A stretch of DNA of 31,258 bases from a virus (lineage: Duplodnaviria > Heunggongvirae > Uroviricota > Caudoviricetes). The notes beneath the pieces were generated by a model. It was not told the origin of the DNA, searched no databases, and was given only the letters and a program-made list of their open reading frames with translations. Below, in pieces: positions 1 through 28,025 of this stretch (position 1 is its first letter; each line of letters starts with the position of its first letter). The stretch lies in the IMG/VR virus record IMGVR_UViG_2718217862_000002. One strand, given 5' to 3'. Made by a program: the position numbers and the translations under genes.

Positions 1-903
1 TTATGAAAGCATAGACCGTTTACCCTCCCTGGGTACGACGGAACAGGGGTCCTGATGGATAATTACATCCGATCCCGGAAAACGCCGTAAAATAGCCTGC
101 TCTACCTGATCCGCCACCATATGTGCCTGAACCAAAGGCAGAGAGTCTTCCATTTCCAAATGAATCTGAATAAAGCGGGTCGGCCCTGACTGCCGCGTGC
201 GAAGATCGTGAGCGCCGCTAACACCCGGCCAGGAAGTCACGATATCAATAATTTCTTGCCGTTCCTCATCAGGCAATGCGCGATCCAGTAATGACTGTAC
301 CGCCTCATATCCCATGCGTAACGCGCTATATAAAATATAGATGCCGATTCCCAATGCAAACAGAGCATCGGCGCGATGCCAGCCGTACCAGGACAACCCC
401 AGCGCCAGCAGAATTGCGCCGTTCATCATAACATCAGACTGGTAATGTAGCATATCAGCCCGCACAGCCTGGCTTTGCGTCCGCCGCACCACCCAACGCT
501 GAAACGAGACAAGGATAATCGTACAAATTAGCGCCACAATTGTCACGATAACCCCGACGCCTGGATCTGTCATCGGTGTTGGAGATATCAGATGTTGAAT
601 ACCCGTCAAAAACAGGAATAGTGCCGAACCGGAGATAAACATACTTTGCGCCAGCGCCGCGAGGGACTCAGCTTTACCGTGACCAAACGAGTGATTATCG
701 TCGGCAGGTTGCAGGGAATATCGCACCACCAATAAATTCGTCAACGACGCGCCGATATCCACCAGCGAATCCACCAGCGCGGCGAGAATACTCACCGACC
801 CGGTATACCACCATGCAAAAATTTTAATCAGCAATAGCAGCGAAGCCATCGCCGTCGCAGCAATCGCCGCCCGACTGACCAGCCGTCCATAAGATTGATT
901 CAT
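1..903 (-). CDS. fieF: Cation diffusion facilitator family metal efflux transporter FieF (YiiP), complete, 300 aa
   Basis: ORF 1..921 translation from [25 protein letters not shown]... to ...[12 protein letters not shown] is recognised as E. coli FieF; ATG at 903 gives 300 aa; stop codon at window position 1-3. Confidence 0.9.
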
Positions 904-983
904 AAATACTCCCGCTATCAACTGACGCTAGTATAACGGAAGCAAATCATCTGCAATGCATTAAGCAGCAGGCAAATTGAGGA

Positions 984-2603: not shown

Positions 2604-3082
2604 TATCCCGCCCCCGTCATACCTGTGAATCTGGTCGCCATACTGCCAGCCTTACCAATAAGCGACTCCGCCTGTTTACCGATATCGCCATAAAGCGCGG
2701 CCAGTGATTCATCAACGCGGGTGAGTGACAGCGTAAAATCAATTTTCCGGGGTGTGCCGTCTGCAAAGAAAATACTCCCTGTTTCACTCACCCTGCTGAT
2801 GACATACATGCCATAAATCATGCCAGTGCCATCCAGCAACGGCCACGCCCGGCCTTCCTCTGCCATCAGCCTGAGCGTGGTCATCGTCAGCTTGCCGCCG
2901 GTCAGTTCGGGATAAAGCACGCCGGCAAGCGTAATGTTTTCCTCACCCACACCGAGAAACTGAAAGGCATCCCGTTTACCGATACGGGAATTTGACGGCC
3001 AGCGATAATCTGATTCACGCTGCATGGTCTGGTGTGGCAGCGTCTGGCGCATAAAAACAAACATACCTAACGCGAGCATCAT
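2603..3082 (-). CDS. U: Tail protein gpU, 159 aa
   Basis: Size and position between T and D match P2 gpU; stop overlaps the D start (ATGA). Confidence 0.85.
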   Translation of the reverse strand: MMLALGMFVFMRQTLPHQTMQRESDYRWPSNSRIGKRDAFQFLGVGEENITLAGVLYPELTGGKLTMTTLRLMAEEGRAWPLLDGTGMIYGMYVISRVSETGSIFFADGTPRKIDFTLSLTRVDESLAALYGDIGKQAESLIGKAGSMATRFTGMTGAG

Positions 3083-3096
3083 TTTTCGTCACCTCC

Positions 3097-5544
3097 TTAA
3101 CCGTCATGCATCATGCTGGCACGGGCGCGCGCACGTTTATCCCGCTCGTATTTTTCGAGCGCATCCTGTAACTGGCGGTCGAGCTGAGTCCCCGGCGCAG
3201 TACCGCCCGTCAGACTGATGTGATATTCGTTTTTACTCTGGTCCACATAAGAGCGGCCAGCCGGTGCCGTAACCGGCTGATAAGCCTGATAGCCTGCATA
3301 AGAGCTGGTCGCCGGAATATAACCACCGGTGCCATACGTGGCGGCATGAGTTCTGGCGGCGGTCTGGTCAAGTGTGTCTGACTCTTTGTTGATAACACCG
3401 AGTTTTTCCAGTACCCAGTCAATACCACTGCGCAGTTTGTTGAACGCATTAAGCGGCAGCATCAACGCGTCAGCCAGTGCCTGCCCGAACATGACGCCCG
3501 TGTCACGGCAACGGTTCAGGGTGTCCTGGGTGGCTTTAACCGGGGCGATCAGGTTTTTAAACCACTGCCACGCGGCCTGTAACTTTTCGCCCAACCAGTC
3601 AAACACCGGCTTAAGTGGCGTGAACAGTTCCCCCACCGGCGCAAATGCCGCTTTCAGCCCTTCCACCACACCGCCAAAGAATGCGCTGACAGGCTCCCAG
3701 TATTTACGGATAAGCAACGCCCCGGCGACAATGGCGGCCACCACGGCCATAACCGGCCAGCTAATCGCTCCGATGGCGGTCATAACAGCACTGCCAACCG
3801 TCGTGAAGATTGCCCCCATTGCGCCTGCTGCCGCGATGATGGCATTGATGCCGGTGATAACCGGCCAGGCTACGAGGCCAATGGCACCGATGACACCAAT
3901 CAGTGCCAGTGCACCACCGACAATGATGCCGATGGTTGACGCCAGTGATTTGTTTTTCTGGATCCAGCCGTCGAGTTTTAACACATACTTTGTGGCCGTC
4001 TGCGTGAGCTTACGCAGTGCGCCTTCCTGCTGGTCAAACAGGTCAGTCCCCACCGCCTCATAAGCGGACTGAAACTCTTTAAAGTCACCGCCGAGGTTGT
4101 CCTGCATGATATTTAGCAGCTCGGCGGTCTTCCCGTCTGAGGCTTTAAACGCAGCGGTCAGTTTGTCCAGCTTTCCGGTTGAGGCGGCAGTCATCAGCAC
4201 GGCGGCGGCTGAGCTGGCCTCCTCCCCGAAAATGGTTTTCATGTATTCAGCCTGCTGGGCAGTACCGAGCCGGTTTTTCTCAAAACTGGCCTGCATTTCT
4301 TTCAGAATGGTAAATACTGGTCGGGTATTCCCCTTACTGTCTGAGGTTTTTACGCCAAGCTCTTTCAGTGCATCCCATGCTTTTCCCGTCGGTGCCTGCA
4401 GACGGCTTAACACGGCACGGCTTCCCGTCCCCGCCATTGAACCGGTAATTTTTGCATCATGCAGCGCCCCGACCATTGCGGCGGTTTCTTCAATGCTGAC
4501 ACCGGCATTTTTTGCCACAGGTGCGGCATAGGTCAGCGCATCGCTCATACCGTCAAAATCGGCGGCGGTTTTGTTCATCGTCATGGAGAGAACATCCCCG
4601 ATATGAGCGACCTTATCGTTTGAAAGCTGAAAGGCGGATTTCATCCCCATCAGCAGGGCGGCGTTTTCTTCCATCGTGCGGCGGTTCGCCAGCGCCATAT
4701 TCAGCGTGACCGGCGTTGCCGCCTGAATGGCATCAACATCCCCACCCGCTTTCGCGATGATTATCTGTGCACCGGCCGCATCATCCGCCGAGGCGGCGGT
4801 ATTGTCGCCGAGCTGGCGCGCCTGTTTGCGTAGTGCGGTCATTTCGGCGGAGTCTTTTGCCACTCCGAGCACGGCCTGCAATTCTGAGTTTTTCTGCGCA
4901 AACTCATAACCGGGCATCAGCAGCTTAACTCCGGCCATCGTTCCCGCCGCCGCAATCCCCACACCGGCAGCGCCCACCGAGGCCATATTTCCGACCAGTT
5001 CCTTTCCGGCCTGATAACGCTGTTTGACTGCGTTAAGTTTTGCCTGTTGCGCACTGACACGCGCCAGCGCGTCGCGCTGACGGTTAAGCTGTGCGGTGGT
5101 TTCACTGATACGGTTTTTCAGTCCCTGCTCATCATGTGCAAGATTGCGGGTATTAATTCCCACAGCGGCCAGTTCCCGCTGCTGGCGTTTAACGGAATCC
5201 GTCAGGCGGTTATATTTCGCCTGTAAGTCCTCCGCCGCACGCTTTGCGGATTCCAGCACTTTCGCCTGAGCACGGGTCGGACGTTCGGTGTTTTTAAACT
5301 GTGTGGCAAGGGCTTCGGCTTCCTGCCGAGCCTTTTCAAGTGCATGACCAGTCACGGCGAGCTGTGCACTGGTCTTGCGAAATCCCTCAATACGGGATGC
5401 CTGACCGTTCAGCTCGCGCAGTGATTTTTGTGTTTCCCGGATATCCCCCGACAGCGATTTGCTCGCTGTGCGGATGGATTTAAACGGGCGGGATGCCTGG
5501 TCAACAGCCCTGAGCAATACCTGTAATTTTACATTGTTACTCAT
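3097..5544 (-). CDS. T: Tail tape-measure protein gpT, 815 aa
   Basis: Long Ala/Gln-rich coiled-coil N-terminus and central hydrophobic Gly/Ala-rich segment typical of tape-measure proteins; size and position match P2 gpT. Confidence 0.9.
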   Translation of the reverse strand: MSNNVKLQVLLRAVDQASRPFKSIRTASKSLSGDIRETQKSLRELNGQASRIEGFRKTSAQLAVTGHALEKARQEAEALATQFKNTERPTRAQAKVLESAKRAAEDLQAKYNRLTDSVKRQQRELAAVGINTRNLAHDEQGLKNRISETTAQLNRQRDALARVSAQQAKLNAVKQRYQAGKELVGNMASVGAAGVGIAAAGTMAGVKLLMPGYEFAQKNSELQAVLGVAKDSAEMTALRKQARQLGDNTAASADDAAGAQIIIAKAGGDVDAIQAATPVTLNMALANRRTMEENAALLMGMKSAFQLSNDKVAHIGDVLSMTMNKTAADFDGMSDALTYAAPVAKNAGVSIEETAAMVGALHDAKITGSMAGTGSRAVLSRLQAPTGKAWDALKELGVKTSDSKGNTRPVFTILKEMQASFEKNRLGTAQQAEYMKTIFGEEASSAAAVLMTAASTGKLDKLTAAFKASDGKTAELLNIMQDNLGGDFKEFQSAYEAVGTDLFDQQEGALRKLTQTATKYVLKLDGWIQKNKSLASTIGIIVGGALALIGVIGAIGLVAWPVITGINAIIAAAGAMGAIFTTVGSAVMTAIGAISWPVMAVVAAIVAGALLIRKYWEPVSAFFGGVVEGLKAAFAPVGELFTPLKPVFDWLGEKLQAAWQWFKNLIAPVKATQDTLNRCRDTGVMFGQALADALMLPLNAFNKLRSGIDWVLEKLGVINKESDTLDQTAARTHAATYGTGGYIPATSSYAGYQAYQPVTAPAGRSYVDQSKNEYHISLTGGTAPGTQLDRQLQDALEKYERDKRARARASMMHDG

Positions 5545-6551: not shown

Positions 6552-7742
6552 TTAATTGCTGTTAACCGAGGTGACCAGATTTGCCAGGTATTTATCGGTA
6601 ATACGCTGGCGCAGGGTCAGGTTTTCAAGAGGAGGCACCGGGGTATAGTCGTAGTCGATATACAGTTTTCCGGCCTTGAGGGTTTCCGCATCGTTGGATT
6701 CTTCGCTGAACCAGCAGGTCGCATCCACGATATAGCCGTTTGTTTTCAGCTCACGGAATTTGGCATTGATGCCGTCAACGATGTCGCGAATCAGCGTTGC
6801 GGTGATGGGCTTGTCCACCGCCCACATGTGCGCCTCAGCCATCGTGTCGGCCAGCACCTGCGCGGTGCGGGTGTAGTTTTCAAAGAGGAACAGCGGGTCA
6901 TCGGAGCAGGTACGGTTACCCCAGAAGCGGAAACCGTCGCGGCGAATCAGCGTAGTGACGCCTGACTCGTTAAGCAGGTCAGCATCGGTGCCGGACTCCT
7001 GCAAATCCCAGAAGACGGATGCGCTGATGCCGGTAACACCGTTCACCCCGACATTGGACAGCGTTTTATGCCAGCCCTGCTCCTGGTCGATTTTAGCGCG
7101 CAGACCCAGCGCACGGGCGGTGGCATACGCGGTGGCGGTGGTACTGGTGACCGTATCCCATGCGAGGAAATCCGGCCAGATGACCATCAGCTCACGCTGG
7201 CTGAAATTCTGGCGGTAGGCTTTCACCTCGGAAATGGTTTTACAGCCCCATGCGCTGATATACCCGAAAGCGCGCAGCTTCTGACAGACTGATGCCAGTG
7301 CAACAGCCACCTCTTTGGTGTCCAGTCCCGGCACACCAAGAATACGCGGTTTAACACCGGTTACCGACTCCGCCGCCAGCAGGGCTTTCAGTCCGGTGTA
7401 CTGACCGTTTTCGTCGGTGGTGCCGATGATATTGGAAACGGTCTGCGCGAGTTTCGTTTCTTCGTCGTCGCCGGTGCCGTCTTCCACACGCACGACAACG
7501 GTGACCGGTTTTGACTGGTCAGCGATGGCCTGCAACGATGCTGCCAGCGTGCCTTTTTTACCGGCCTTTGCAATTGCGCTCTGCACATTGGTAATCAGCA
7601 CAGGTTTATTGAGGGGGAAGGTTTCCGCATCCGCATCGCTGGCCGTGCAGACCATGCCGACAATGGCAGTGGATACGGTGGAAATGACACGGGTGCCGTC
7701 GTTAATCTCCAGCACCTGCACGCCGTGATGATAGTCACTCAT
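6552..7742 (-). CDS. FI: Contractile tail sheath protein gpFI, 396 aa
   Basis: MSDYHHGVQVLEINDGTRVISTVSTAIVGMVCTASDADAETFPLNKPVLITN... recognised as P2-type sheath; size matches. Confidence 0.9.
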   Translation of the reverse strand: MSDYHHGVQVLEINDGTRVISTVSTAIVGMVCTASDADAETFPLNKPVLITNVQSAIAKAGKKGTLAASLQAIADQSKPVTVVVRVEDGTGDDEETKLAQTVSNIIGTTDENGQYTGLKALLAAESVTGVKPRILGVPGLDTKEVAVALASVCQKLRAFGYISAWGCKTISEVKAYRQNFSQRELMVIWPDFLAWDTVTSTTATAYATARALGLRAKIDQEQGWHKTLSNVGVNGVTGISASVFWDLQESGTDADLLNESGVTTLIRRDGFRFWGNRTCSDDPLFLFENYTRTAQVLADTMAEAHMWAVDKPITATLIRDIVDGINAKFRELKTNGYIVDATCWFSEESNDAETLKAGKLYIDYDYTPVPPLENLTLRQRITDKYLANLVTSVNSN

Positions 7743-7801
7743 CCGTTTAACTCCGTGGTTAATGGGTGAGTGATATTTTCTGTTGTGCCGGAGATGTCAG
7801 G

Positions 7802-7984
7802 CTATTTGTCCCGGTTGGCTAAGGGATGACACAATTTATTCTTTGTCGCTGATGAGGGGAATTTTTTATAGAGCGTGGACAGGCCAATATCAAAAATCAG
7901 CTCACATCCTGCGCACTCCAGCGCGTTACGCTGCAATTCCGTATTCTGGTCATTTGTTGACACGCGGACATAGCCAATAAGCAT
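7802..7984 (-). pseudogene. Serine DNA invertase (Gin/Hin/Pin/Cin family) remnant with an in-frame internal deletion; 60 aa instead of about 190
   Basis: MLIGYVRVSTNDQNTELQRNALECAGCELIF is the conserved invertase N-terminus with the catalytic Ser in VRVSTNDQ; it is joined directly to DIGLSTLYKKFPSS, which matches the extreme C-terminal HTH end of Gin/Pin. The catalytic domain core of about 130 aa is missing. Confidence 0.7.
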
Positions 7985-8011
7985 GATGGATCCCCTGAAT
8001 AAAAACCGGGG

Positions 8012-8521
8012 ATGATGCCAGTTAGCCGTAATCTCTGCATTTTCTTAAACGTTGGTTTGGGAGAAACGATAAATAAAGCCTCCGGAGCTATGCAGAAATC
8101 GGCTAATGGAGCTGATATTTCTGATGTATCAGCCTTCCGAAATGCGCTCCAGTTAGGGACCGCCGCAACACGAGATGTTGGAGCAGATAATGCCTCGAAG
8201 TTACTGGATTTAGACAGCTTCAGGTCAATGATGTCAGGGAATGGCTACATCTACATTCCATGCATTGCGACGACAGGAAACCCGGTGAAACTTATGTTGC
8301 AGTGGGGAACGGTGGCAACACAAAAGGGAGCTGATGCTGGATATGCCTTACCATTTGCTTTTCCCTATGCAGGCTTATTTGCGACCGGAAACCGTGGAAC
8401 ATCTGGCTACAATGCCGCGATGAATGTGCGTATTGCCAGCAGAACGCATATCAGTATTCAGAACTGGTCGCCATCCGGAGAGGGCACCGAAGATTGTTGT
8501 TTTATCGCGCTGGGGTATTAA
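8012..8521 (+). CDS. Alternate tail-fibre C-terminal (receptor-binding, Sv'-like) cassette lacking an N-terminal constant region; probably not expressed as a fibre in this orientation
   Basis: C-terminal part is homologous to the C-terminus of H on the opposite strand (shared GY.Y.P ... LQWG ... ALG[IY]-stop); followed by a tfa gene; begins at the hix-like site. Confidence 0.55.
   Translation: MMPVSRNLCIFLNVGLGETINKASGAMQKSANGADISDVSAFRNALQLGTAATRDVGADNASKLLDLDSFRSMMSGNGYIYIPCIATTGNPVKLMLQWGTVATQKGADAGYALPFAFPYAGLFATGNRGTSGYNAAMNVRIASRTHISIQNWSPSGEGTEDCCFIALGY
8042..8065. promoter_or_regulatory. hix/gix-like recombination-site remnant (TTCTTAAACGTTGGTTTGGGAGAA)
   Basis: Resembles the Hin/Gin crossover consensus (TTCTTGAAAACC..GGTTTTTGATAA-like half-sites) but with a shortened centre; sits exactly where the alternate fibre cassette begins, next to the invertase remnant. 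Confidence 0.35.
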
Positions 8522-8523
8522 GA

Positions 8524-8934
8524 ATGAATAAATTTTATAAAGGCTCTTTCTATCCGAAAGCACTAAAAGAGGTATATATCAGCGCCGGTTCATGGCCTGA
8601 AAATGGCGTTGATGTTGATGATGAAACAATGGCAATTTACACAGGCGTAGCGCCACAAGGCAAAACGCTGGGGGCTGATAAAAATGGTAATCCTGCGTGG
8701 ATTGATATCCCGCCACTCTCCGCTGAACAACAGATTATTCAGGCTGAACAGAAAAGAACGGTATTGCGTTCTATGGCTGATAAGGAAATAGTCTGGAGAC
8801 AGGATGCTTTTGATGCGGAAATCGCGACGGCAGAAGAAACCGCCGCGTTATCTGAATGGAAAAAATACCGGGTGCTGCTGATGCGCGTTGATACCTCAAA
8901 AGCCCCCGATATTCTGTGGCCTCCGCAACCGTAA
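8524..8934 (+). CDS. Tail-fibre assembly protein (Tfa / P2 gpG family), 136 aa
   Basis: C-terminus EWKKYRVLLMRVDTSKAPDILWPPQP matches the conserved Tfa C-terminal motif (lambda Tfa / P2 G type, WRQYRVLLNRVDTSTAPD.WP); ATG at 8524 three nt after the cassette stop. Confidence 0.7.
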   Translation: MNKFYKGSFYPKALKEVYISAGSWPENGVDVDDETMAIYTGVAPQGKTLGADKNGNPAWIDIPPLSAEQQIIQAEQKRTVLRSMADKEIVWRQDAFDAEIATAEETAALSEWKKYRVLLMRVDTSKAPDILWPPQP

Positions 8935-8961
8935 CAAAAAGCCGCTGTTTGCGGCTTTCTC

Positions 8962-10074
8962 TTATATCCCCAGCGCAAGATAGGTGTAGCTGTCAATATT
9001 GTTTGCCGTACCGTTTCCACTCCAGCCATAGAGACTAAACCCGGTCTGCGTGTAATTAACAGATGTTACATACCGATGGTCAGCTGTGATTTTATGCGGA
9101 AGAACGATAAATGGGGTGACATTAAACGGTTTTTTAAAGCTTACCGTAGCATTGGTCGCCTGAACCGAGCCGTGCCCCCATTGCAGCAGCAATCCTCCCG
9201 GTAATTCAAAGTACCCATCAGCCTCCAGTAACCGTTCTCCAAATCCAAGGTATGCGAGAAGACCAGCTACATCCTTTCCACTCAAATGAGTCAGCGTCTC
9301 ATCCAGTGGCTGCTTACCTGACAGCGCATTGTTAATGGTGGTACTGAATTTCGGGTCATTGTTAATGGCTGCGGCAATTTCTTTCAGTGTGTCCAGCGTG
9401 GCTGGCGCACCGTTAATCAGAGCGGTAATAGCGGCCTGAACAAACGCAGTGGTCGCAATCCGCGTGGTGTTATTTCCTGCGGCAGGCGTCGGCGCTTTTG
9501 GTTCTCCGGTAAATGTCGGATTATGTTTCTGCGCATACTGGGTATGAGGATCCTGTGCGGCAATGTGGTTTCTCATCTGGTCATCCACATACAGCCTTAA
9601 TTCCAGGACTTCATCATCCACGTATTTACGGGTCGCCAGTACCACCGACGGGTCGATTTTCAGCGTGATAGCTTCGGTATTCGTGACAACCAGAATCATG
9701 CGGATAGTCTGGGTACGACCACTGCCTTCCTGCAACTGCGGTTTGTACGTTTCCGGGCAGTTCGCCACCGCAATGAGTACGCCTTCATCATCATAAAGCC
9801 CAATCTCACGGATCCAGAATCCGCCCTCGTTCTCAGGGATGATTTGCTCCGCAATAATCTGGCTCTGGTTGTTCGGGTCAACACTCAGAAGATTCAGCGG
9901 CGCGATGCGTTTCTGGTTAATCAGTTTTGTCTGTGCCGGGTCTGGTGTCGGCAAGACACCATTCGCATCACCAACGGCCATTTGCGTCAGATTCAGCTTA
10001 CTGCCGAGCATCGTCGCGTTAGCCAGCCGTGCTGCGCCCTGATTAGTCAGAATGGCGTAGTATTTCACTGTCAT
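8962..10074 (-). CDS. H: Tail fibre protein gpH, 370 aa (P2 H-like N-terminus, divergent shorter C-terminal region)
   Basis: N-terminus MTVKYYAILTNQGAARLANATMLGSKLNLTQMAVGDANG...GGFWIREIGLYDDEGVLIAVANCPETYKP recognisably P2 H-like; position between I and the tail-fibre accessory region. Confidence 0.85.
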   Translation of the reverse strand: MTVKYYAILTNQGAARLANATMLGSKLNLTQMAVGDANGVLPTPDPAQTKLINQKRIAPLNLLSVDPNNQSQIIAEQIIPENEGGFWIREIGLYDDEGVLIAVANCPETYKPQLQEGSGRTQTIRMILVVTNTEAITLKIDPSVVLATRKYVDDEVLELRLYVDDQMRNHIAAQDPHTQYAQKHNPTFTGEPKAPTPAAGNNTTRIATTAFVQAAITALINGAPATLDTLKEIAAAINNDPKFSTTINNALSGKQPLDETLTHLSGKDVAGLLAYLGFGERLLEADGYFELPGGLLLQWGHGSVQATNATVSFKKPFNVTPFIVLPHKITADHRYVTSVNYTQTGFSLYGWSGNGTANNIDSYTYLALGI

Positions 10075-19007: not shown

Positions 19008-20780
19008 ATGACCATCACCACAGACACCACTCTTTTACACGACCCGCGTCGTCAGGCGGCGCTGCTGTACTGGCAGGGGTTTTCCGTGCCGCAGATTGCC
19101 GCCATGTTGCAGATGAAACGCCCGACGGTGCAGAGCTGGAAACAGCGCGACGGCTGGGACAGCGTTGCTCCCATCAGCCGTGTCGAAATGAGTCTGGAAG
19201 CGCGGCTGACCCAGCTCATCATCAAACCGCAGAAAACCGGCGGTGACTTCAAGGAAATTGATCTGCTGGGACGCCAGATTGAACGACTGGCACGGGTAAA
19301 CCGCTACAACCAGACCGGCAACGAGGCAGACCTTAATCCGAACATCGCTAACCGCAACAAAGGCGGGCGACGCAAACCGAAAAAGAATTTTTTCAGCGAC
19401 GAGGCTATCGAAAAGCTGGAGCAGATTTTCTTTGAGCAGTCTTTCGAATATCAGTTGCACTGGTATCGCGCCGGGCTTGAGCACCGCATCCGCGATATCC
19501 TGAAATCCCGCCAGATTGGCGCGACGTTTTATTTTTCCCGCGAGGCGCTGCTGCGCGCCCTGAAAACCGGTCATAACCAGATTTTTCTGTCGGCCAGTAA
19601 AACGCAGGCGTATGTGTTCCGCGAATACATCATCGCCTTTGCCCGTCTGGTTGACGTTGACCTGACCGGTGACCCGATTGTCCTGGGCAATAACGGCGCA
19701 AAACTGATTTTTCTCGGCACCAACTCCAACACCGCACAGAGCCATAACGGCGACCTGTACGTCGACGAGATTTTCTGGATCCCGAATTTTCAGGTACTGC
19801 GTAAGGTGGCATCAGGTATGGCCTCACAGAGTCACCTGCGTTCGACCTATTTCTCCACCCCGTCCACGCTGGCGCACGACGCCTACCCGTTCTGGTCAGG
19901 TGAACTGTTCAACCGGGGACGCGCCAGCGCCGCCGAACGCGTGGAAATCGACGTCAGTCATAACGCCCTTGCCGGTGGGCTTCTCTGTGCGGACGGCCAG
20001 TGGCGGCAGATTGTCACCATTGAGGACGCCCTGAAAGGTGGCTGCACGCTGTTCGACATTGAGCAGCTCAAACGTGAAAACAGCGCCGACGATTTTAAAA
20101 ACCTGTTCATGTGTGAATTTGTTGACGACAAGGCGCCGGTGTTCCCGTTCGAGGAGCTGCAACGCTGCATGGTCGACACGCTGGAAGAATGGGAAGACTA
20201 TGCGCCGTTTGCCGCGAATCCGTTCGGCTCCCGCCCGGTATGGATTGGTTACGACCCGTCACACCGTGGCGACAGCGCCGGATGCGTGGTGCTGGCACCG
20301 CCGGTGGTGGCCGGTGGCAAATTCAGAATACTTGAGCGTCACCAGTGGAAAGGCATGGACTTTGCCACTCAGGCGGAATCCATCCGCAAACTCACCGAAA
20401 AATACAACGTCGAATACATCGGTATTGATGCCACCGGCCTCGGTGTCGGCGTGTTCCAGCTCGTGCGCTCGTTCTATCCCGCCGCGCGCGATATCCGCTA
20501 CACGCCGGAAATGAAAACCGCAATGGTGCTCAAGGCAAAAGACGTTATCCGTCGTGGCTGTCTGGAATATGACGTCAGCGCCACCGACATCACCAGCTCG
20601 TTTATGGCTATCCGCAAGACCATGACCAGCAGCGGACGCAGCGCCACCTATGAGGCCAGCCGCAGCGAGGAAGCCAGCCACGCCGACCTCGCCTGGGCGA
20701 CCATGCACGCCCTGTTAAATGAGCCACTCACCGCCGGTATCAGCACTCCGCTGACATCCACCATTCTGGAGTTTTACTGA
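19008..20780 (+). CDS. P: Terminase large (ATPase) subunit gpP, 590 aa
   Basis: Start at MTITTDTTLLHDPRRQAALLYWQGFSVPQIA (ATG 19008, GAGG six nt upstream); size matches P2 gpP. Confidence 0.9.
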   Translation: MTITTDTTLLHDPRRQAALLYWQGFSVPQIAAMLQMKRPTVQSWKQRDGWDSVAPISRVEMSLEARLTQLIIKPQKTGGDFKEIDLLGRQIERLARVNRYNQTGNEADLNPNIANRNKGGRRKPKKNFFSDEAIEKLEQIFFEQSFEYQLHWYRAGLEHRIRDILKSRQIGATFYFSREALLRALKTGHNQIFLSASKTQAYVFREYIIAFARLVDVDLTGDPIVLGNNGAKLIFLGTNSNTAQSHNGDLYVDEIFWIPNFQVLRKVASGMASQSHLRSTYFSTPSTLAHDAYPFWSGELFNRGRASAAERVEIDVSHNALAGGLLCADGQWRQIVTIEDALKGGCTLFDIEQLKRENSADDFKNLFMCEFVDDKAPVFPFEELQRCMVDTLEEWEDYAPFAANPFGSRPVWIGYDPSHRGDSAGCVVLAPPVVAGGKFRILERHQWKGMDFATQAESIRKLTEKYNVEYIGIDATGLGVGVFQLVRSFYPAARDIRYTPEMKTAMVLKAKDVIRRGCLEYDVSATDITSSFMAIRKTMTSSGRSATYEASRSEEASHADLAWATMHALLNEPLTAGISTPLTSTILEFY

Positions 20781-21814
20781 TGAGCAAGAAAAAAGGGAAA
20801 ACACCGCGACCAGCGGCAAAAAAAATGACCGCCAGCGCTCCGAAAATGGAGGCATTCACCTTTGGCGAGCCGGTGCCGGTACTCGACCGCCGTGACATTC
20901 TGGATTATGTCGAGTGCATCAGTAACGGCAGATGGTATGAGCCACCGGTCAGCTTTACCGGTCTGGCAAAAAGCCTGCGTGCTGCCGTGCATCACAGCTC
21001 CCCGATTTACGTCAAACGCAATATTCTGGCCTCGACATTTATCCCGCATCCGTGGCTTTCCCAGCAGGATTTCAGCCGCTTTGTGCTGGATTTTCTGGTG
21101 TTCGGTAATGCGTTTCTGGAAAAGCGTTACAGCACTACCGGTAAGGTCATCAGACTGGAAACCTCACCGGCAAAATATACCCGCCGTGGCGTGGAAGAGG
21201 ATGTTTACTGGTGGGTGCCGTCCTTCAACGAGCCGACAGCCTTCGCGCCCGGCTCCGTGTTTCACCTGCTGGAGCCGGATATTAATCAGGAGCTGTACGG
21301 CCTGCCGGAATATCTCAGCGCCCTTAACTCTGCCTGGCTGAATGAGTCGGCCACGTTGTTCCGCCGCAAGTATTACGAAAATGGCGCACATGCCGGATAC
21401 ATCATGTACGTCACCGATGCCGTGCAGGATCGCAACGATATCGAAATGCTTCGCGAAAACATGGTCAAGTCGAAAGGCCGCAACAACTTTAAAAACCTGT
21501 TTCTCTATGCCCCACAGGGGAAAGCCGACGGCATTAAAATTATCCCCCTCAGTGAAGTGGCGACGAAGGACGATTTTTTTAATATCAAAAAAGCCAGCGC
21601 CGCTGACCTGCTGGACGCGCACCGCATCCCCTTTCAGTTGATGGGTGGCAAGCCGGAGAACGTCGGGTCGCTGGGTGATATTGAGAAAGTGGCAAAGGTC
21701 TTTGTCCGCAATGAGCTTATCCCGTTACAGGACAGGATCCGCGAGATAAACGGCTGGCTCGGTCAGGAGGTCATCCGCTTTAAAAACTACTCACTGGACA
21801 CTGACAACGACTGA
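20780..21814 (+). CDS. Q: Portal protein gpQ, 344 aa
   Basis: Size identical to P2 gpQ; start overlaps the P stop; last gene before cos. Confidence 0.9.
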   Translation: MSKKKGKTPRPAAKKMTASAPKMEAFTFGEPVPVLDRRDILDYVECISNGRWYEPPVSFTGLAKSLRAAVHHSSPIYVKRNILASTFIPHPWLSQQDFSRFVLDFLVFGNAFLEKRYSTTGKVIRLETSPAKYTRRGVEEDVYWWVPSFNEPTAFAPGSVFHLLEPDINQELYGLPEYLSALNSAWLNESATLFRRKYYENGAHAGYIMYVTDAVQDRNDIEMLRENMVKSKGRNNFKNLFLYAPQGKADGIKIIPLSEVATKDDFFNIKKASAADLLDAHRIPFQLMGGKPENVGSLGDIEKVAKVFVRNELIPLQDRIREINGWLGQEVIRFKNYSLDTDND

Positions 21815-21984: not shown

Positions 21985-22003
21985 GTGCTTTCCCCGCCTC
22001 GCC
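21985..22003. other. P2-type cos cohesive-end sequence (reverse complement of GGCGAGGCGGGGAAAGCAC)
   Basis: Plus strand reads GTGCTTTCCCCGCCTCGCC at 21985..22003, which is the exact reverse complement of the 19-nt P2 cohesive end as I recall it; located just beyond Q as in P2. Confidence 0.6.
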
Positions 22004-22229
22004 CGCCCGCTTCATGGGGCGGTTTTAATGCAGTTGCATGAGTACGTTGGAACCGCACTGGTGCTGACGATACCCAATCAAACCTTGCTGTATAATTACT
22101 TGCGAATTCACGCACATCAACGCGAATCTTACATCATGAATAATTCATTTATGGCTACAGAATGAGTATATTGCATGTTATGAAATAACTTTGTGCTCCT
22201 TCTCGTGGACATGTTCAACGGAGATCCAG

Positions 22230-23351
22230 ATGATTGCTGATTCAGAAATACTTTATGTTCCGCTAGATGATTTGGAACTTGACACAGAAAACCCAAGACT
22301 TCCTGAAGGCGTGTCTCGTGACCAATTGGGAATGATTAACTACATAGCAACCTCAACATCTATCGAAGACCTAATGAGTGCTATTGCGGAAAATGGTTTT
22401 TTCCCTGGAGAACCATTGATTGTCATTCCTGATAGTGGAGCGCCGGGGAAGTACATTGTAGTTGAAGGAAACCGTCGCCTATCCGCGGTCAAATTATTAC
22501 GCGATCCGACACTATGTGAAAATCCAAGTGCTCGACTACGAGAAATTGCATCAAATGCAAAACATACGGTCGATCGTGTTCCTGTCATTGAGCGCCAAAC
22601 AAGAGAAGAGATTCTTCCGTACCTTGGTTTCAGACATATTACTGGTGTCAAACAATGGGAACCCTTATCAAAAGCTCGATATATTAAACAGCTTTTTGAT
22701 TATACCAATGCAAATCTGGATCCAATGCTACGCTACTATGAGGTTGCCAGAGCTATTGGCAGTCGTAGGGATCATATCAAGCGTAACCTAGACGCTTTAG
22801 CGGTGTATGAAATCATTAAAAAAAATGATTTTTATGGTATTGAAAAGCTAGATGAAGAAACGATTAAATTTTCAGTATTATCAACAGCACTTGCTGATGA
22901 GCGGTTAGGCCAGTTTGTCGGAGTTTCAATCGAAGACGATGGAGACACAATACCAAGTCATCCTATCATCAATTCTAAGAGTTTAAAGAACAAAGAAATA
23001 AAAGAACTAACTGAATGGTTATATAAAAAAGGCGAGGATAAAAAAACTCGTGTAGGAGAATCACGTAATTTAAGAGAACTAGCTGCTGTTGTAAGTAGCC
23101 CTAAGGCATTGGAGCAATTCCGAATGGGGGCTCCACTCGCAGTTGCCTATCAATTGACATCTGATATTACTAAGGACTTTCTCCAGTTACTTTATCAAGT
23201 TGAAGCAGCTTTGATAGATGCAGCAGGCATGGTTGCCACGGTAGAGTATGATAGACAGGCCCATGAAGTAGCACGAAGAATCAATAAACATATTAAGCTT
23301 ATAGGTTCTGAAATAGCAGAGAAAAATAGCAGAGGTGATGATGACTTTTGA
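22230..23351 (+). CDS. ParB/Srx-like (ParB N-terminal nuclease/NTPase-fold) domain protein, about 373 aa; cargo gene 1
   Basis: N-terminal region ILYVPLDDLELDTENPRL ... LMSAIAENGFFPGEPLIVIP ... KYIVVEGNRRLSAVKLL follows the ParB-box pattern (NPR motif, then the G-x-R-R arginine motif). ATG at 22230 preceded by GGAG; the ORF-track start at 22191 is a TTG. AT-rich codon usage unlike the phage backbone. Confidence 0.7.
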   Translation: MIADSEILYVPLDDLELDTENPRLPEGVSRDQLGMINYIATSTSIEDLMSAIAENGFFPGEPLIVIPDSGAPGKYIVVEGNRRLSAVKLLRDPTLCENPSARLREIASNAKHTVDRVPVIERQTREEILPYLGFRHITGVKQWEPLSKARYIKQLFDYTNANLDPMLRYYEVARAIGSRRDHIKRNLDALAVYEIIKKNDFYGIEKLDEETIKFSVLSTALADERLGQFVGVSIEDDGDTIPSHPIINSKSLKNKEIKELTEWLYKKGEDKKTRVGESRNLRELAAVVSSPKALEQFRMGAPLAVAYQLTSDITKDFLQLLYQVEAALIDAAGMVATVEYDRQAHEVARRINKHIKLIGSEIAEKNSRGDDDF

Positions 23352-24330
23352 AGTAGGAGTTATGCATCCCAACTCTCCTCATTTGTTTGCAGATTTAGCC
23401 GAGTTACTCACGGTAATTAATTATACCGGACGTAACTCACTACATAAAAATGATTTAGATTCAGTAAGAAAATTCGGCATAACAAGCGTTGAAGAAATTG
23501 ATGAAGAATGTAATTCTGAAGAAGAAATTAATGGAGACGCTGAGAGAAATGATCGTTTTGAAGAGCAACTCGAAGATGTTTGGACACAACTCGAATATAG
23601 AGAAAGTGCTCTTGGCAAAATATATCCATTTATAATTTCAGGTGATGAGATAATTATTAAAGAAAATCTAAACCAACAACAACGAATATATGTTTTTCTT
23701 CTTTGCTGCTCTAGACTTAGATCCTTTAAGTCGATTAAAGGAGCAGCACAACGTTGGGCAAAGAGCTTTGCCAGAGTATGTAAAGTAGCAATGATTTCTC
23801 TCTTACCTGCACATGGCACCGTAAGAATTTTTGATGCTAACTCCGATGATAGGCAAAATTATTATGGAACAAATCTTCGGACAGCTCTACAAACTTTAGG
23901 AAAAGATCTTGGAGTTTGTAGTTTAAACACAAGGGAAATAAATAGAGCTCCCACATCTGGTGATGCCGGGTTTGACCTAATTGCTACAGTGGAATTTCCT
24001 GATGGTCAAACTAGCAACTATGGAATTCTTGGTCAATGTGGTGCACAAGAAACAGGGTGGCCAAGCAAAACATTAGAGGCTAACGTGTTAAAACTGACCA
24101 CCTATTTCCAAATTGCGTTCCAGCATCCATCAACAATGTTCACGCCTGTTTTCTATCGGGAAGCAAATGGCGAATGGGTAAGCACACACGCAACCGCTGG
24201 AGTATTATTATTAGATAGGTTGAGAATCATATATCTACTTGATAAGGCAAACCAATGGGAAGCGATAACTACCTCTGATTGGTTTCGCGAATTTGAGGAA
24301 GAGCTTTATACATTAAATCCAGAGCCTTAA
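23335..24330 (+). CDS. Hypothetical protein, 331 aa, no domain recognised; overlaps gene 1 by 17 nt; cargo gene 2
   Basis: Long ORF in the AT-rich island, start codons (ATGATGATG) overlapping the 3' end of gene 1; acidic stretch EEIDEECNSEEEINGDAERNDRFEEQLED near the N-terminus. Confidence 0.6.
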   Translation: MMMTFEVGVMHPNSPHLFADLAELLTVINYTGRNSLHKNDLDSVRKFGITSVEEIDEECNSEEEINGDAERNDRFEEQLEDVWTQLEYRESALGKIYPFIISGDEIIIKENLNQQQRIYVFLLCCSRLRSFKSIKGAAQRWAKSFARVCKVAMISLLPAHGTVRIFDANSDDRQNYYGTNLRTALQTLGKDLGVCSLNTREINRAPTSGDAGFDLIATVEFPDGQTSNYGILGQCGAQETGWPSKTLEANVLKLTTYFQIAFQHPSTMFTPVFYREANGEWVSTHATAGVLLLDRLRIIYLLDKANQWEAITTSDWFREFEEELYTLNPEP

Positions 24331-24337
24331 TAGCTTA

Positions 24338-25282
24338 TCAATCCCATAATTCTATTGGCAATGCCTTCGTTACAGCTTCAAAAAGCGGCGGAGGCACTGC
24401 ATTACCAACCACCGTGTATTTCATGCCAAGACTTGCAGCATTTGTTTCTGGAAACACTAGATCCTCAAACCCTTGTAATAGTGCAGCCTCTCGAAAACTG
24501 AATCTGCGAGCTCTCCGATCCTCAACAAATCTCCATTCATCAGTTCTTACTTTCTCCATCGGAGGACTGACAGGATGCAACGGCATATGCCTTGCATTAG
24601 CAACTATTGTCTTTGAAATTTGATCCCAATCCTGGCGACGATTGCGAGACATATAATACCAATGGAATCCCATATCATAAAATTCACCTTCTGGCCATTC
24701 AGGTAAATGCCCTATAGCATCTTTAATAGTAACATAGTTGACGCCAGTTGCTGGCCCATGAGTTGGCTGAGGGAACTCGTACTTAACTTTGAAATCATTA
24801 CGGATTCCTACGATAAATATTCTTTTTCTTTCCTGCGCTACTCCATATTCAGCCGCATTTAAAACTTTTGCGGAAACAGTATAACCTGCTTCAGTAAAAA
24901 CCCTGATCTGGTCAGATAACAAATGCTCAAAATTTTTTCTAACCATACCAGACACGTTTTCTACTATAAAAGCTTTAGGCTTTATATTGTTTAAAGCTCT
25001 AGCAAACTCTAAATAAAGAGTATTAATTTTTCGATCGGCTTTACGCGCACCACCCTGGCTGAATCCCTGACATGGATAACAACCTACCAGCAAATCAGAT
25101 TTAGGAAAAGTAGTTACATCAGCAATATTGCCTAATATGTAATCAGTTTCTGGATGATTGGCAATATAAACATCGCGCGCATACGGCAAGATATCGTTGG
25201 CCATAAGCACATCAAAGCCGGCTCTCAAAACCCCCGCATCGGAACCACCGCATCCAGAAAAAAGTGAAACTACTGTTGGCAT
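24338..25282 (-). CDS. DNA (cytosine-5)-methyltransferase, 314 aa; cargo gene 3
   Basis: Canonical m5C MTase motifs in order: FSGCGG (motif I, AdoMet binding), PCQGFS (motif IV, catalytic Cys), ENV (motif VI), QERKR (motif VIII). Convergent with gene 2, stops 8 bp apart. Confidence 0.9.
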   Translation of the reverse strand: MPTVVSLFSGCGGSDAGVLRAGFDVLMANDILPYARDVYIANHPETDYILGNIADVTTFPKSDLLVGCYPCQGFSQGGARKADRKINTLYLEFARALNNIKPKAFIVENVSGMVRKNFEHLLSDQIRVFTEAGYTVSAKVLNAAEYGVAQERKRIFIVGIRNDFKVKYEFPQPTHGPATGVNYVTIKDAIGHLPEWPEGEFYDMGFHWYYMSRNRRQDWDQISKTIVANARHMPLHPVSPPMEKVRTDEWRFVEDRRARRFSFREAALLQGFEDLVFPETNAASLGMKYTVVGNAVPPPLFEAVTKALPIELWD

Positions 25283-25401
25283 TATCCCCTCCTAAAACCG
25301 ACCGCGTATTATAGCGAAAGCCTCCGTATATAGAAGCAGGTTTTGAACAAGATTATGTTCTCACTTTTTAACAACTGTGGCCATAAAAAATTAGCTCAAT
25401 A

Positions 25402-25483: not shown

Positions 25484-27760
25484 TTATTGTTTAATTGAAA
25501 AAACCGACCACTCATTAGCGACCGGATACGTGAATTTTTTCCCGTCATAATTTACGGTTGCCCCACGCGCCAGCGCCTCAAGCTCCCATCGCTGCGGCCT
25601 GATACCGTTCTGAGCAAGGTCAACGCGGATACGGGTAATTTGCATTCGTTCCGACCGGGTCAGTCTGGCCGATGGTGCCATTTCATGCGGTTTTAACGGG
25701 CTTCCGTTTCTTTGCTGGCGATTTGGTGTTCTCAGGCCATGTTTTAATGCACCTCTGAGCGCCCTCACGACCTCCGGGTCATTCCATTCGATGACACCGT
25801 CATCAACCAGATTAAGCACTGCTGCGGCGTGCTCAGAAGGTGTGGGAGCTGGTAACGAAGTATCACCACCGGTGAGCTTTCCACAGTTATTGACAGGACT
25901 CCGAGGCGCGGCGATGCCGCTTTTTAAAGTCAAAGGCTCAACGACCGGAACTTTCGGCACAATGCGCCAGTCCGTCGTTCTGGTGATATGAATATGACGC
26001 GCGCCGAGATGCGGCGCGTAAATGCCGACCACTCTCTCGACTTCTTCCTCGTATTCGTTAACGTCATCCGACGGGCTACGGGCGACCCTGACAGTCTGAC
26101 AATCGCGCGGGACATTTGCCCCGCCCTGCGCGCTGATATACAACGCAAAATCGCCACTGTCTGCGGCGGCGCGTGCAGCCTCCACGCGTTCGTCAAATTC
26201 ATCAGCAATGCTGACGCCGCGAGGCAATTTACGTAGCTCACGGTAAGCTCCCATTGTCGGCAGGCCAACCGTTTTAAATTGCGGGATGCGCCACGTTGAC
26301 GCCCATGCGGTAACAGCCGCCGCAGTATCTTTCAGCGGTCTGCCGGTATCGTTATCGAGCTGACCATCCAGTGCATAGCCGTCGATATTTTTTGAAATGT
26401 ATTTCGCGATATATCCCGCAGCACCGCCCCGGTTAAGGTGTTTTGCCTGAAAACGGTTTCGCGCGGCTCCTCTTTCGTCGCCATCCTCTTTGAGCGCATA
26501 GCGGCGCATGATTTCGATAATCTGGTTACGCTGGCGTGGATTACAAAAAAGCATCATATGCCAGTGCGGCGTTCCGTCGTGGTGTGGCTCGACGACTCGC
26601 AAACCGTAGACCTGTAAATCATTATCCTTGAATGCCGTGCGCATCAGGCTCCAGATACGGCAGAGATAACGCTGCGCATCCTTTGGATTAAATGCCTCAT
26701 CATTCCAGCCGTGATTAAGCTGGACGGTTTTATTTTCGCCTTTTCCAACCTGACGTGTCGGGTGATACTTTGACGGCGCGGTCAGCGTGATAAACATCCC
26801 CACATCACCCTCTGAGGCGGCGTAACGCTCAATACCGGCAATGGTGTTCATCAGCTCCATCCGGCGAATTTCAGGATTAGAAATACTGCCCATCACCTTA
26901 CTGATAAGGTCGATGCGCTCGCCGGTTTCCCTGTTTTCAAGATCACACGATTTAAGAAATTCCAGATTTGCCTGGCGGCGCGCACGCACATCACGAATGG
27001 CATGTTTACTGGCATAAGGTGAACGGTCTTTATTGACCTCCCCGACAGCTATCAGTAACGCCTCATGCCAGCGCATACGCTGGCCTTTAAGCTGATGAGT
27101 CCACCACTCATCGTTAAACAGACGGGCAATGGCAGAATATGCCTGCCTCGTGGTCATCTGCCCTTTACGGTATTTGTTCCAGTAGAGAGGGGAAATATTG
27201 AAAGCACGTGCAGCGCCAGCAACATGACCATAGAGGTGAGCCTGCGCCTCATCCGTAAACAGCGATTCTTTTTCGCCATGTGCATCCACCCAGGCATCGC
27301 TGAGTTCCTCATACATCATGAAAAGCTGCGATGAGATACGGGCAGCAAACTTTTTCAGCTCCTTGTCATTCATTCCCGGCAGGCGCGCATAGTGGTCACG
27401 CTCTGCCAGAAACAGTAACGACGCGTCGGTGTTCATTTCATGGCGCTGATTCACACGCTCAATGCGCGGCCATAAACGACGCTGAAAAGTGGATGTGAGG
27501 AAATAAAACCCGTGCACCGGGCTTTTATTGCGCCGGATGTAGTCATAGCGTGAAGTAAACAGCGAGCGCAAAAAGTAAGGCAGGCGGTTAATCGTGGATA
27601 AAACACCTTGCACCTGACGCATCTCGTCACGTGTAAGAGGTCTTTCGCGCCCGACAGCCTCGCGTGGCGCGTTCCATGCATAAGCACCGGTAAACGCCTT
27701 ACCGGTGCCTGCGGCAAATGCTGACGGAGGGACAAAACGCCCGGAGGCTTTAACGGCCAT
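25484..27760 (-). CDS. A: Replication initiation protein gpA (rolling-circle endonuclease), about 758 aa
   Basis: Size and position match P2 gpA; first ATG at 27760 (MAVKASGRF...); the ORF-track start at 27802 is a TTG that would overlap orf83 by about 50 nt. Confidence 0.85.
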   Translation of the reverse strand: MAVKASGRFVPPSAFAAGTGKAFTGAYAWNAPREAVGRERPLTRDEMRQVQGVLSTINRLPYFLRSLFTSRYDYIRRNKSPVHGFYFLTSTFQRRLWPRIERVNQRHEMNTDASLLFLAERDHYARLPGMNDKELKKFAARISSQLFMMYEELSDAWVDAHGEKESLFTDEAQAHLYGHVAGAARAFNISPLYWNKYRKGQMTTRQAYSAIARLFNDEWWTHQLKGQRMRWHEALLIAVGEVNKDRSPYASKHAIRDVRARRQANLEFLKSCDLENRETGERIDLISKVMGSISNPEIRRMELMNTIAGIERYAASEGDVGMFITLTAPSKYHPTRQVGKGENKTVQLNHGWNDEAFNPKDAQRYLCRIWSLMRTAFKDNDLQVYGLRVVEPHHDGTPHWHMMLFCNPRQRNQIIEIMRRYALKEDGDERGAARNRFQAKHLNRGGAAGYIAKYISKNIDGYALDGQLDNDTGRPLKDTAAAVTAWASTWRIPQFKTVGLPTMGAYRELRKLPRGVSIADEFDERVEAARAAADSGDFALYISAQGGANVPRDCQTVRVARSPSDDVNEYEEEVERVVGIYAPHLGARHIHITRTTDWRIVPKVPVVEPLTLKSGIAAPRSPVNNCGKLTGGDTSLPAPTPSEHAAAVLNLVDDGVIEWNDPEVVRALRGALKHGLRTPNRQQRNGSPLKPHEMAPSARLTRSERMQITRIRVDLAQNGIRPQRWELEALARGATVNYDGKKFTYPVANEWSVFSIKQ

Positions 27761-28025
27761 ATGAGCCAAAAGCCTCAGAACAACGCTTGCTGAGTTGCTC
27801 AACCTGCGCGTTTAAATCAGCAAAAGACTTTGCGCTTCCGGTCAGAATATCGTGATGCATCAGGCCGGAAACGAGCTGGCTTAATTTCGGGTAATAACCA
27901 ACCACCGCCAGCCATTCCTGACCGGCGTTTTTACCGCTTTCCGCTCTCTTTTTCTCGTGGAGAATAAACTGAAAGCTGTCACTGGTAACGACATAACGTT
28001 CGCCAATTTCAATACGAATACTCAT
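27750..28025 (-). CDS. Hypothetical protein (P2 orf83 position), 91 aa
   Basis: Synteny within the early operon between orf82 and A; start overlaps the orf82 stop. Confidence 0.55.
   Translation of the reverse strand: MSIRIEIGERYVVTSDSFQFILHEKKRAESGKNAGQEWLAVVGYYPKLSQLVSGLMHHDILTGSAKSFADLNAQVEQLSKRCSEAFGSYGR

Follow-up and report, generated by a model that had tools for sequence, protein, structure and literature searches.

What is the function of the first gene past the cos site of a P2-like Escherichia coli prophage, and why is it found beside a nuclease-fold gene and a DNA methyltransferase? The window analysed here is a stretch of 31,258 nucleotides (IMG/VR record IMGVR_UViG_2718217862_000002) that consists of a P2-like prophage of E. 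coli with host flank at its left end. Between the cos/portal region and the replication gene A, the prophage carries three cargo genes. They encode a ParB/Srx-fold protein, which we call ParBL, the product of a second open reading frame (ORF2), and a convergent C5-cytosine DNA methyltransferase (C5-MTase). The cassette is an unannotated three-gene unit built on a two-gene core, and it most likely belongs among ParB-linked, methylation-associated defence systems. We favour, with a probability of about 0.5, a reading in which ParBL is the sensor subunit of a restriction-modification (RM)-like anti-phage cassette, where ORF2 cuts DNA and 5-methylcytosine (m5C) protects self DNA. The observations behind it are the genes themselves, their predicted folds and invariant motifs, the strict pairing and co-variation of ParBL with ORF2, the linkage to C5-MTases and the location in a known anti-phage hotspot.

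The ParBL family is large. A word-index search with ParBL gave 1995 matches, the best 120 of which are all ~370 amino acids (aa) long, are ~60% identical and span Enterobacteriaceae, Pseudomonas, Burkholderia, methylotrophs and others. In an exhaustive profile search, with proteins clustered at 50% identity, 5147 representatives reached E<=1e-3, of which 653 reached E<=1e-30; the top 150 matches are all full-length, at ~360-380 aa. Gene neighbourhoods were scanned with one genome per species, which yielded 46 loci from Proteobacteria, Bacteroidota, Acidobacteria, Actinobacteria, Planctomycetes and others; ~38 of these species-level loci are informative for methylase linkage. Wherever the sequence extends far enough beyond ParBL, an ORF2 homologue lies directly 3' of it, in loci from at least 7 phyla, and the two frames mostly overlap or abut. 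Pairwise identities of ParBL and of ORF2 correlate with a Spearman rho of 0.90 in the cassettes that have all three genes. This constant adjacency, together with the identity correlation, indicates that ParBL and ORF2 form an obligate, co-evolving pair. A preliminary annotation made from the letters of the window (hereafter the sequence-only reading) had raised the possibility that ParBL works with a nuclease, which agrees with the nuclease-fold ORF2 that always follows it. Other neighbours of the pair include an Mrr_cat restriction endonuclease in a Flavobacteriales metagenome-assembled genome (MAG; L028, 1707-2579) and an NYN-domain protein in Sphingomonas (L019, 4663-5556), which suggests small defence islands.

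ParBL is a protein of 373 aa encoded at 22230..23351 on the plus strand. RefSeq annotates it at exactly the same coordinates as WP_000559725, under the name 'ParB N-terminal domain-containing protein'. As read from the sequence, a Shine-Dalgarno GGAG (22220..22223, plus strand) precedes the ATG at 22230 with a 6-nt spacer, and homologues align from that methionine. The protein comprises an N-terminal ParB/Srx domain (~aa 1-125; 22230..22604, plus strand), a ParB-like helix-turn-helix (HTH)/helical middle region and a conserved helical C-terminal domain. Conservation was assessed in ~35 distinct family members from at least 7 phyla, including Proteobacteria, Bacteroidota, Actinobacteria and Planctomycetes, with overall identity down to ~30%. 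In the N-domain, D18, N21-P22-R23, N55, F58, G60-E61-P62 and E79-G80-N81-R82-R83 are invariant; further on, so are Y131, R135-H136-(I/V)-(T/S)-G139 (RHITG in ParBL, just 3' of the N-domain stretch), W143, K148 and W263. Such conservation is far more than chance would give. The ParB N-domain pattern that the sequence-only reading had described is borne out, since the motifs it quoted (LDTENPRL, FFPGEPLIVI and VVEGNRRLSAV) are present and hold invariant positions in these members. The remaining ~270 aa, in which it recognised no motif, contain the HTH region and the conserved C-terminal domain.

Judged by sequence profiles, membership of ParBL in the ParB family would be weak and borderline. The match to Pfam ParB_N (PF02195) has an E-value of 0.11 and 13 bits, below the cut-off of 26.3, and a precomputed PF02195 match exists on many close homologues. 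TIGR00180 is matched over residues 41-92 only, with 33 bits against a cut-off of 58.45. Helicobacter pylori ParB from the PDB is matched with an E-value of 0.024 by the single sequence and 0.009 by the family profile, EGNRRLSA of ParBL being aligned to GERRLRA. Structure prediction confirmed the ParB/Srx fold and the N-domain claimed from sequence; its best match among structures is to KorB, a CTP-dependent repressor, and the alignment with Spo0J extends over 156 aa, HTH region included. On the predicted model, ParBL is thereby confirmed as a real ParB-fold protein.

ParBL shares with the ParB, Spo0J and KorB clamps the N-domain fold, the NPR at box I and the paired arginines of GERRxRA (EGNRRLSA). 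Unlike ParBL, these clamps possess a box III ENLQR and a different C-terminal domain. By manual alignment, RH(I/V)(T/S)G of ParBL falls at the place of box III, whose canonical sequence we take to be ENLQR. The pocket of ParBL is thus conserved yet chemically unlike that of partition ParB. The obligate partner of ParBL is a nuclease-fold protein and not a ParA: no parA neighbour is present at the window locus and none is conserved among ~45 related loci, nor is there a parS-like repeat near ParBL. Identity as a partition ParB was therefore rejected on the score below the TIGR00180 cut-off, the missing ENLQR box and the missing ParA partner, as the sequence-only reading had anticipated on other grounds. 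Membership in DUF262 or DndB was likewise rejected for want of a profile match, with no Pfam match to DUF262 or DUF1524 at E<=1 for either ParBL or ORF2. A HEPN domain in the C-terminus of ParBL was also considered and discarded: the histidine of the candidate RRINKH (Rx4H) is mostly N in homologues, and the PD-Lambda-5_A profiles discussed below miss this region.

ORF2 encodes 329 aa at 23341..24330 on the plus strand, and its start overlaps the stop of ParBL by 11 nt. Searches of Pfam, NCBIfam and PADLOC gave no match for it. When 22 diverse homologues were scanned singly, none matched Pfam Mrr_cat, and the sole match was a weak one to DUF4365 (E 0.003). The structure model of ORF2 is confident, with a pLDDT of 87 and a pTM of 0.89, and shows an N-terminal winged helix followed by a C-terminal Mrr/MspJI-like PD-(D/E)xK nuclease fold. 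Foldseek places MspJI first (probability 0.96, E 0.015), and the fold also resembles NgoMIV, Cfr10I, SgrAI, AgeI, HindIII and FokI-type catalytic domains. Residues D208, D212, D221, Q232-C233, W240, K243, E/D246, W279 and D292-R-x-R295 are invariant across phyla. The ORF2 family was compared by hhalign with one Mrr_cat protein from a neighbouring gene. The sole segment aligned, weakly, was GDAGFDL...GQCG against the Mrr motif GDHGVDL...VQCK (E 0.046, probability 1%), a match that may be called suggestive and no proof. The lysine of the Mrr motif (GDxGxD...QxK) is missing from every ORF2 member, and K243 is a candidate substitute for it. With moderate confidence, then, ORF2 is predicted to be a winged-helix protein with an Mrr/MspJI-like PD-(D/E)xK nuclease domain.

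The third gene encodes a C5-MTase of 314 aa (24338..25282, minus strand), convergent with ORF2 and with 7 nt between the two stop codons. It matches PF00145 (E 5.5e-65) and TIGR00675. Its alignment to M.HaeIII (PDB 1dct, E 1.4e-48) covers residues 4-308 with all motifs aligned and the gene intact; the target-recognition region is included and the MSRNR stretch is conserved. Such full-length likeness makes a GGCC-type specificity plausible as a prediction. Avoidance of GGCC was tried as evidence of specificity and set aside: the window holds 116 sites versus 150±9.5 in dinucleotide-preserving shuffles, a mild depletion relative to the window's own dinucleotide composition alone.

A C5-MTase is adjacent to the pair in ~20 of the ~38 informative loci. 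The arrangements number at least 4 and draw on different C5-MTase lineages; DNA methylases of other classes were not seen beside the pair in these ~38 loci. In beta- and gamma-proteobacteria the C5-MTase is convergent and follows ORF2 directly, the stop codons being 0-17 nt apart. This convergent three-gene form occurs in P2/186-like prophages of E. coli, Salmonella and Edwardsiella, and adjoins integrases in elements of Burkholderia and Pseudomonas. One clade of alpha-proteobacteria has the C5-MTase upstream in the same operon (M5C-ParBL-ORF2, M5C being the C5-MTase), often followed by Vsr, and in Acidobacteria and Dormibacteraeota it lies downstream, with Vsr. In the beta/gamma cassettes and the alpha-proteobacterial M5C-ParBL-ORF2(-Vsr) operons, ParBL and ORF2 are the only nuclease candidates beside the methylase, and there they occupy the position expected of the R gene. 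Mean identities are 72% for the C5-MTase, 53% for ParBL and 46% for ORF2, and better conservation of the methyltransferase is the usual pattern for M versus R genes. A Methylovulum MAG (L010, 2242-5101) has an insertion sequence (IS) element, made of a serine resolvase and an IS605 OrfB/TnpB-like gene, directly 3' of ORF2 in the position that the C5-MTase takes in relatives. Its ORF2 is the one copy with E246A, a change at a site that is invariant in all others. This single anecdote fits inactivation of the nuclease after loss of the methyltransferase.

The three genes sit in a low-GC island at ~22000-25400, with ~38-41% GC versus ~55% in the prophage flanks and sharp edges in the composition profile. 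ParBL is the first gene past cos; the sequence-only reading had called it the first gene of an island and noted its AT-rich codon usage. The conserved left flank is the P2-type portal gene Q (20780..21814, plus strand; PF04860 and RefSeq annotation). The left border of the cargo is the P2-type cos site GGCGAGGCGGGGAAAGCAC (21985..22003, minus strand), a 19-mer that we take to be the cos sequence of P2 and that has one exact match in the window, with 0 expected by chance. The conserved right flank is the P2-type replication endonuclease gene A (25484..27802, minus strand; PF05840, E 3e-123, and RefSeq annotation). The 3.7-kb stretch has copies with 100% identity in many E. coli chromosomes. Among 5426 complete E. 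coli genomes, the cargo is found in 48 (<1%) and the hotspot flanks in 2172 (~40%); rare cargo within common flanks is typical of swappable defence cargo. In P2 itself, this hotspot 1 holds old and tin; of the 21 defence systems that Vassallo et al. newly validated (PMC9519451), four were housed there.

We compared ParBL with known defence systems using PADLOC. Among the 25 models matched, the best was PD-Lambda-5_A (E 6e-29, profile positions 7-277 of 440), and a second relative was the candidate PDC-M38A (E 1e-20). The link to a defence-associated ParB-type family, drawn in the sequence-only reading, stands with this PADLOC match, and DUF262 and DndB, which it had named as related folds, are replaced by PD-lambda-5 as the closest known defence relative. 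PD-lambda-5 was found in strain ECOR7 and consists of a ~500-aa protein, with ParBc at residues 6-89 and weak HEPN/DUF4145 matches, together with a D12-class adenine methyltransferase (PMC9519451). It was experimentally protective against nine of ten phages, with the strongest effect on T-even phages; its cloning needed an mrr-deleted host, and Vassallo et al. read it as a compacted system of RM plus abortive infection (Abi) (PMC9519451).

The PD-lambda-5 A protein, ~440-500 aa long, shows homology to ParBL that covers the ParB/Srx N-domain and extends into the middle region. Both systems are compact, reside on prophages or mobile elements and have a DNA methyltransferase as an integral neighbour. 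Unlike PD-lambda-5, the window cassette has three genes instead of two, and ParBL does not match the HEPN half of PD-Lambda-5_A, coverage ending at 277 of 440. The same holds across the ParBL family, Wphi, Bacteroidota and alpha-proteobacteria included, where only the first 160-277 profile positions are matched. The effector is here a separate protein, predicted to combine a winged helix and a PD-(D/E)xK domain, for which PADLOC has no model; ORF2-family proteins matched no PADLOC profile. The methylase is a C5-cytosine enzyme (PF00145) here and Dam-like there, and PD-Lambda-5_B is absent among the best 25 of the 63 PADLOC matches of the window C5-MTase. Genuine PD-lambda-5 does occur beside phage integrases, in Marinobacter phage AS1 and Vibrio phage ValB1MD-2, whose A profiles are matched at full length and whose methyltransferases match PD-Lambda-5_B at 1e-103 and 1e-118. 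In ValB1MD-2 (2947-5386), the A component is split into two ORFs followed by a Dam-like PD-Lambda-5_B, the ParB part matching profile positions 4-238 and the HEPN-side part 250-502 of 503. Sensor and effector halves can therefore be separate genes. The window cassette may be viewed as a distantly related sister architecture to PD-lambda-5 with effector and methylase swapped. PADLOC or DefenseFinder would probably report at most a partial PD-lambda-5_A match and would miss the system, because PADLOC matches the A component only.

The low GC content and rarity of the cargo in the hotspot, the nuclease fold, the methylase and the precedent of PD-lambda-5 were together counted in favour of an RM-like defence function. 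The idea that ParBL belongs to a defence island linked to DNA modification, already present in the sequence-only reading, gains from the P2 hotspot, the PD-Lambda-5_A match and the frequent C5-methyltransferase flank. From folds, motifs, synteny and hotspot location, we infer the following activity. The HaeIII-like C5-methyltransferase would mark host and prophage DNA. ParBL would bind DNA and scan it by means of its ParB-type HTH, with the NPR/EGNRR/RHITG pocket, which may bind a nucleotide, acting as a nucleotide-dependent switch. It would then form a complex with its obligate partner ORF2 and recruit or license it, and ORF2 would cut incoming unmarked DNA; such methylation-sensitive cleavage could defend the host against phages.

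This scheme resembles Type II RM systems such as HaeIII and EcoRII-Dcm-Vsr in having a HaeIII-like C5-MTase convergent or in an operon with nuclease-fold genes, in the presence of Vsr in several relatives of the cassette and in an M gene better conserved than the R candidates. It departs from them in its extra obligatory ParB/Srx-fold subunit, which is better conserved than the nuclease, in the frequent absence of a methylase beside the ParBL-ORF2 pair, and in an Mrr-like ORF2 motif (GDxGxD...QC) that does not have the canonical lysine.

Several observations weigh against the RM-like reading. In ~18 of the ~38 loci, the pair has no DNA methylase within ~4 kb. These loci come from several gamma- and beta-proteobacteria and include all the Bacteroidota, Riflebacteria and Phycisphaerae examined, and their pairs are often inserted among housekeeping genes (citrate synthase, aconitase, NadA, GuaA). 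The catalytic-type residues of ORF2 are intact there, and the pair can therefore occur with no methylase beside it. In a second alpha-proteobacterial clade (L019, L021, L022, L041) a NotI-like restriction endonuclease (REase) stands beside the C5-MTase, and in another locus (L009) an HNH_2 nuclease is encoded between ORF2 and the methylase; the methyltransferases in such loci may primarily serve the NotI-like or HNH enzymes. The identities of the C5-MTase and ParBL do not correlate in the three-gene cassettes (rho ~0). Phage Wphi, described below, has a C5-MTase that is 76% identical next to a pair that is 34% and 25% identical, and divergence of the methyltransferase is uncoupled from that of the pair. 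Finally, ParBL lacks the ENLQR hydrolysis box of ParB, and its nucleotide chemistry is putative.

Several of these observations also feed a second explanation, one that we consider possible and yet doubtful: ParBL and ORF2 would form an autonomous two-gene nuclease system, similar to GmrS/GmrD or McrB/McrC, and the C5-MTase would have a separate function, for instance as the partner of another REase or as a counter-restriction methylase of the phage. The pair would attack modified or phage-specific DNA in a Type IV-like manner, or sense infection. It is in keeping with this that the pair is universal and the C5-MTase is not, that intact ORF2 residues, NotI-like or HNH companions of the methyltransferase and uncoupled divergence are all seen as described above, and that MspJI, the best fold match of ORF2, is a modification-dependent enzyme. 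The strongest protection by PD-lambda-5 is against T-even phages, which have hypermodified DNA. GmrS and GmrD can be two separate, prophage-encoded proteins. In the DUF262 group (GmrSD, SspE, BrxU, Menshen NsnA and PD-T4-2), a ParB-family NTPase domain senses DNA modification, as in GmrSD and SspE, and controls a nuclease (PMC12065111). ParBL and ORF2 would share with GmrSD, BrxU, SspE and Menshen NsnA the coupling of a ParB-superfamily, NTP-binding DNA sensor to a nuclease effector. They differ from this group in that ParBL has no DUF262 match, has the motif EGNRR and not DGQQR, and keeps a ParB-like HTH. The effector is predicted to be PD-(D/E)xK here and is HNH/DUF1524 there, and the cassette is linked to a methylase and not to modification-dependent targeting.

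McrBC, a Type IV system, likewise joins an NTP-binding DNA-recognition subunit to a PD-(D/E)xK nuclease subunit; unlike ParBL, McrB is an AAA+ GTPase and not ParB-like, and McrBC is m5C-dependent. We know of no McrBC that is paired with a C5-MTase. An m5C-dependent Type IV enzyme would indeed be toxic beside an active C5-MTase, which speaks against an autonomous pair of this kind. The adjacency to C5-MTases and to no other methylases is moreover recurrent, tight and independently arisen, overlapping-gene operons exist with Vsr and no other nuclease, and the three-gene unit is transferred as a whole among prophages and integrative elements whose hosts are distant from each other.

A more mechanistic proposal, to which we attach little confidence, is that ParBL is a nucleotide-gated, ParB-type clamp that has come to serve a restriction enzyme as the subunit for DNA scanning and communication. 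ParBL would load on an unmethylated target and switch on CTP or another NTP by means of the NPR/EGNRR/RHITG pocket; it would then slide on the DNA and bring in the Mrr-like ORF2 or activate it, with or without a dedicated m5C methylase. If true, this would represent a new mechanistic class of NTP-dependent restriction, with hundreds of 50%-identity clusters in many phyla.

It is also conceivable, and in our view improbable, that the pair acts as a guard in the manner of RM plus Abi. The methylase, methylated DNA or a neighbouring RM system would keep ParBL-ORF2 inactive, and a phage that blocks or evades methylation or restriction would release indiscriminate DNA degradation that aborts the infection, the model being PrrC with EcoprrI. 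The published interpretation of the related PD-lambda-5 points this way, as do pairs that stand beside complete type II systems of NotI-like REase and MTase, and the SspE ParB-family sensors, which are activated by the host's own modification. The loci without a C5-MTase leave no partner to guard, however; nothing points to a toxin-like RNase, and ParBL does not have the HEPN part of PD-Lambda-5_A.

It is very improbable that ParBL serves the phage itself as a ParB/KorB-type regulator or a partition/segregation factor without a defence role: KorB is its best structural match, the Spo0J HTH region aligns and some databases name homologues 'chromosome partitioning protein ParB', but ParBL scores below the partition-ParB cut-off with neither a ParA gene nor a parS-like repeat close by, P2 as an integrating element has no need of a partition system, the pair also forms a two-gene islet among housekeeping genes in many phyla, and ParBL is dispensable cargo constantly coupled to a nuclease-fold protein.

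The cassette, for which we favour an RM-like role, is also carried by isolated phages. The same cassette is present in the infectious Peduoviruses HQ103 and vB_EcoM-12474, and a distant version in Wphi. In HQ103, a Yersinia/E. coli Peduovirus (NC_070908), the cassette is 99.97% identical. Its C5-MTase gene (2338-3279) is intact, encodes a protein that is 100% identical and is unannotated in both the deposited and the RefSeq records, and its ParBL and ORF2 are labelled 'hypothetical'. Wphi has at the same hotspot gp98 (34% identical to ParBL), gp96 (25% to ORF2) and mth (76% to the C5-MTase). At the same hotspot of Yersinia phage L-413C (NC_004745, 207-1199), a C-terminally truncated ParBL homologue is 62% identical over residues 9-303, and ORF2 and the methylase are gone; the locus is an apparent deletion remnant of the cassette.

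If our reading is true, a large and widespread gene pair, made of a ParB-fold protein and a nuclease-fold protein with no Pfam or PADLOC model, would be an unrecognised anti-phage nuclease module, and the long-known, unexplained Wphi genes gp98, gp96 and mth would acquire a function. The cassette joins the field of ParB and CTP switches to that of restriction-modification. Loci with an m5C methylase, without one and with an extra REase offer a natural comparison set for self/non-self discrimination, and the near-identical cassette in the isolated phage HQ103 and in E. coli lysogens makes the proposal directly testable. In the literature, we found no study of this cassette; Rousset et al. 2022 makes no mention of ParB or a methylase, and a transposon sequencing (Tn-seq) study concerns unrelated RM systems.

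Elsewhere in the window, the tail-fibre region (7742-10074) has a lower GC content (~47-49%) and an odd layout, as in an invertible host-range segment. The tail-fibre gene of 370 aa (8965-10074) is on the minus strand, and two ORFs that follow it point the other way, on the plus strand: one (8012-8518) encodes a second Gp53-like tail-fibre C-terminus, the other (8494-8931) a tail-fibre assembly protein. An invertible segment was rejected: a search for inverted repeats of >=18 nt found none, and the ORF list contains no invertase of >=110 aa. At the left end, a host gene for a cation-efflux protein of the CDF family (4-921, minus strand) runs off the window, which spans the junction between prophage and host; the attachment (att) site is expected between ~921 and 1440.

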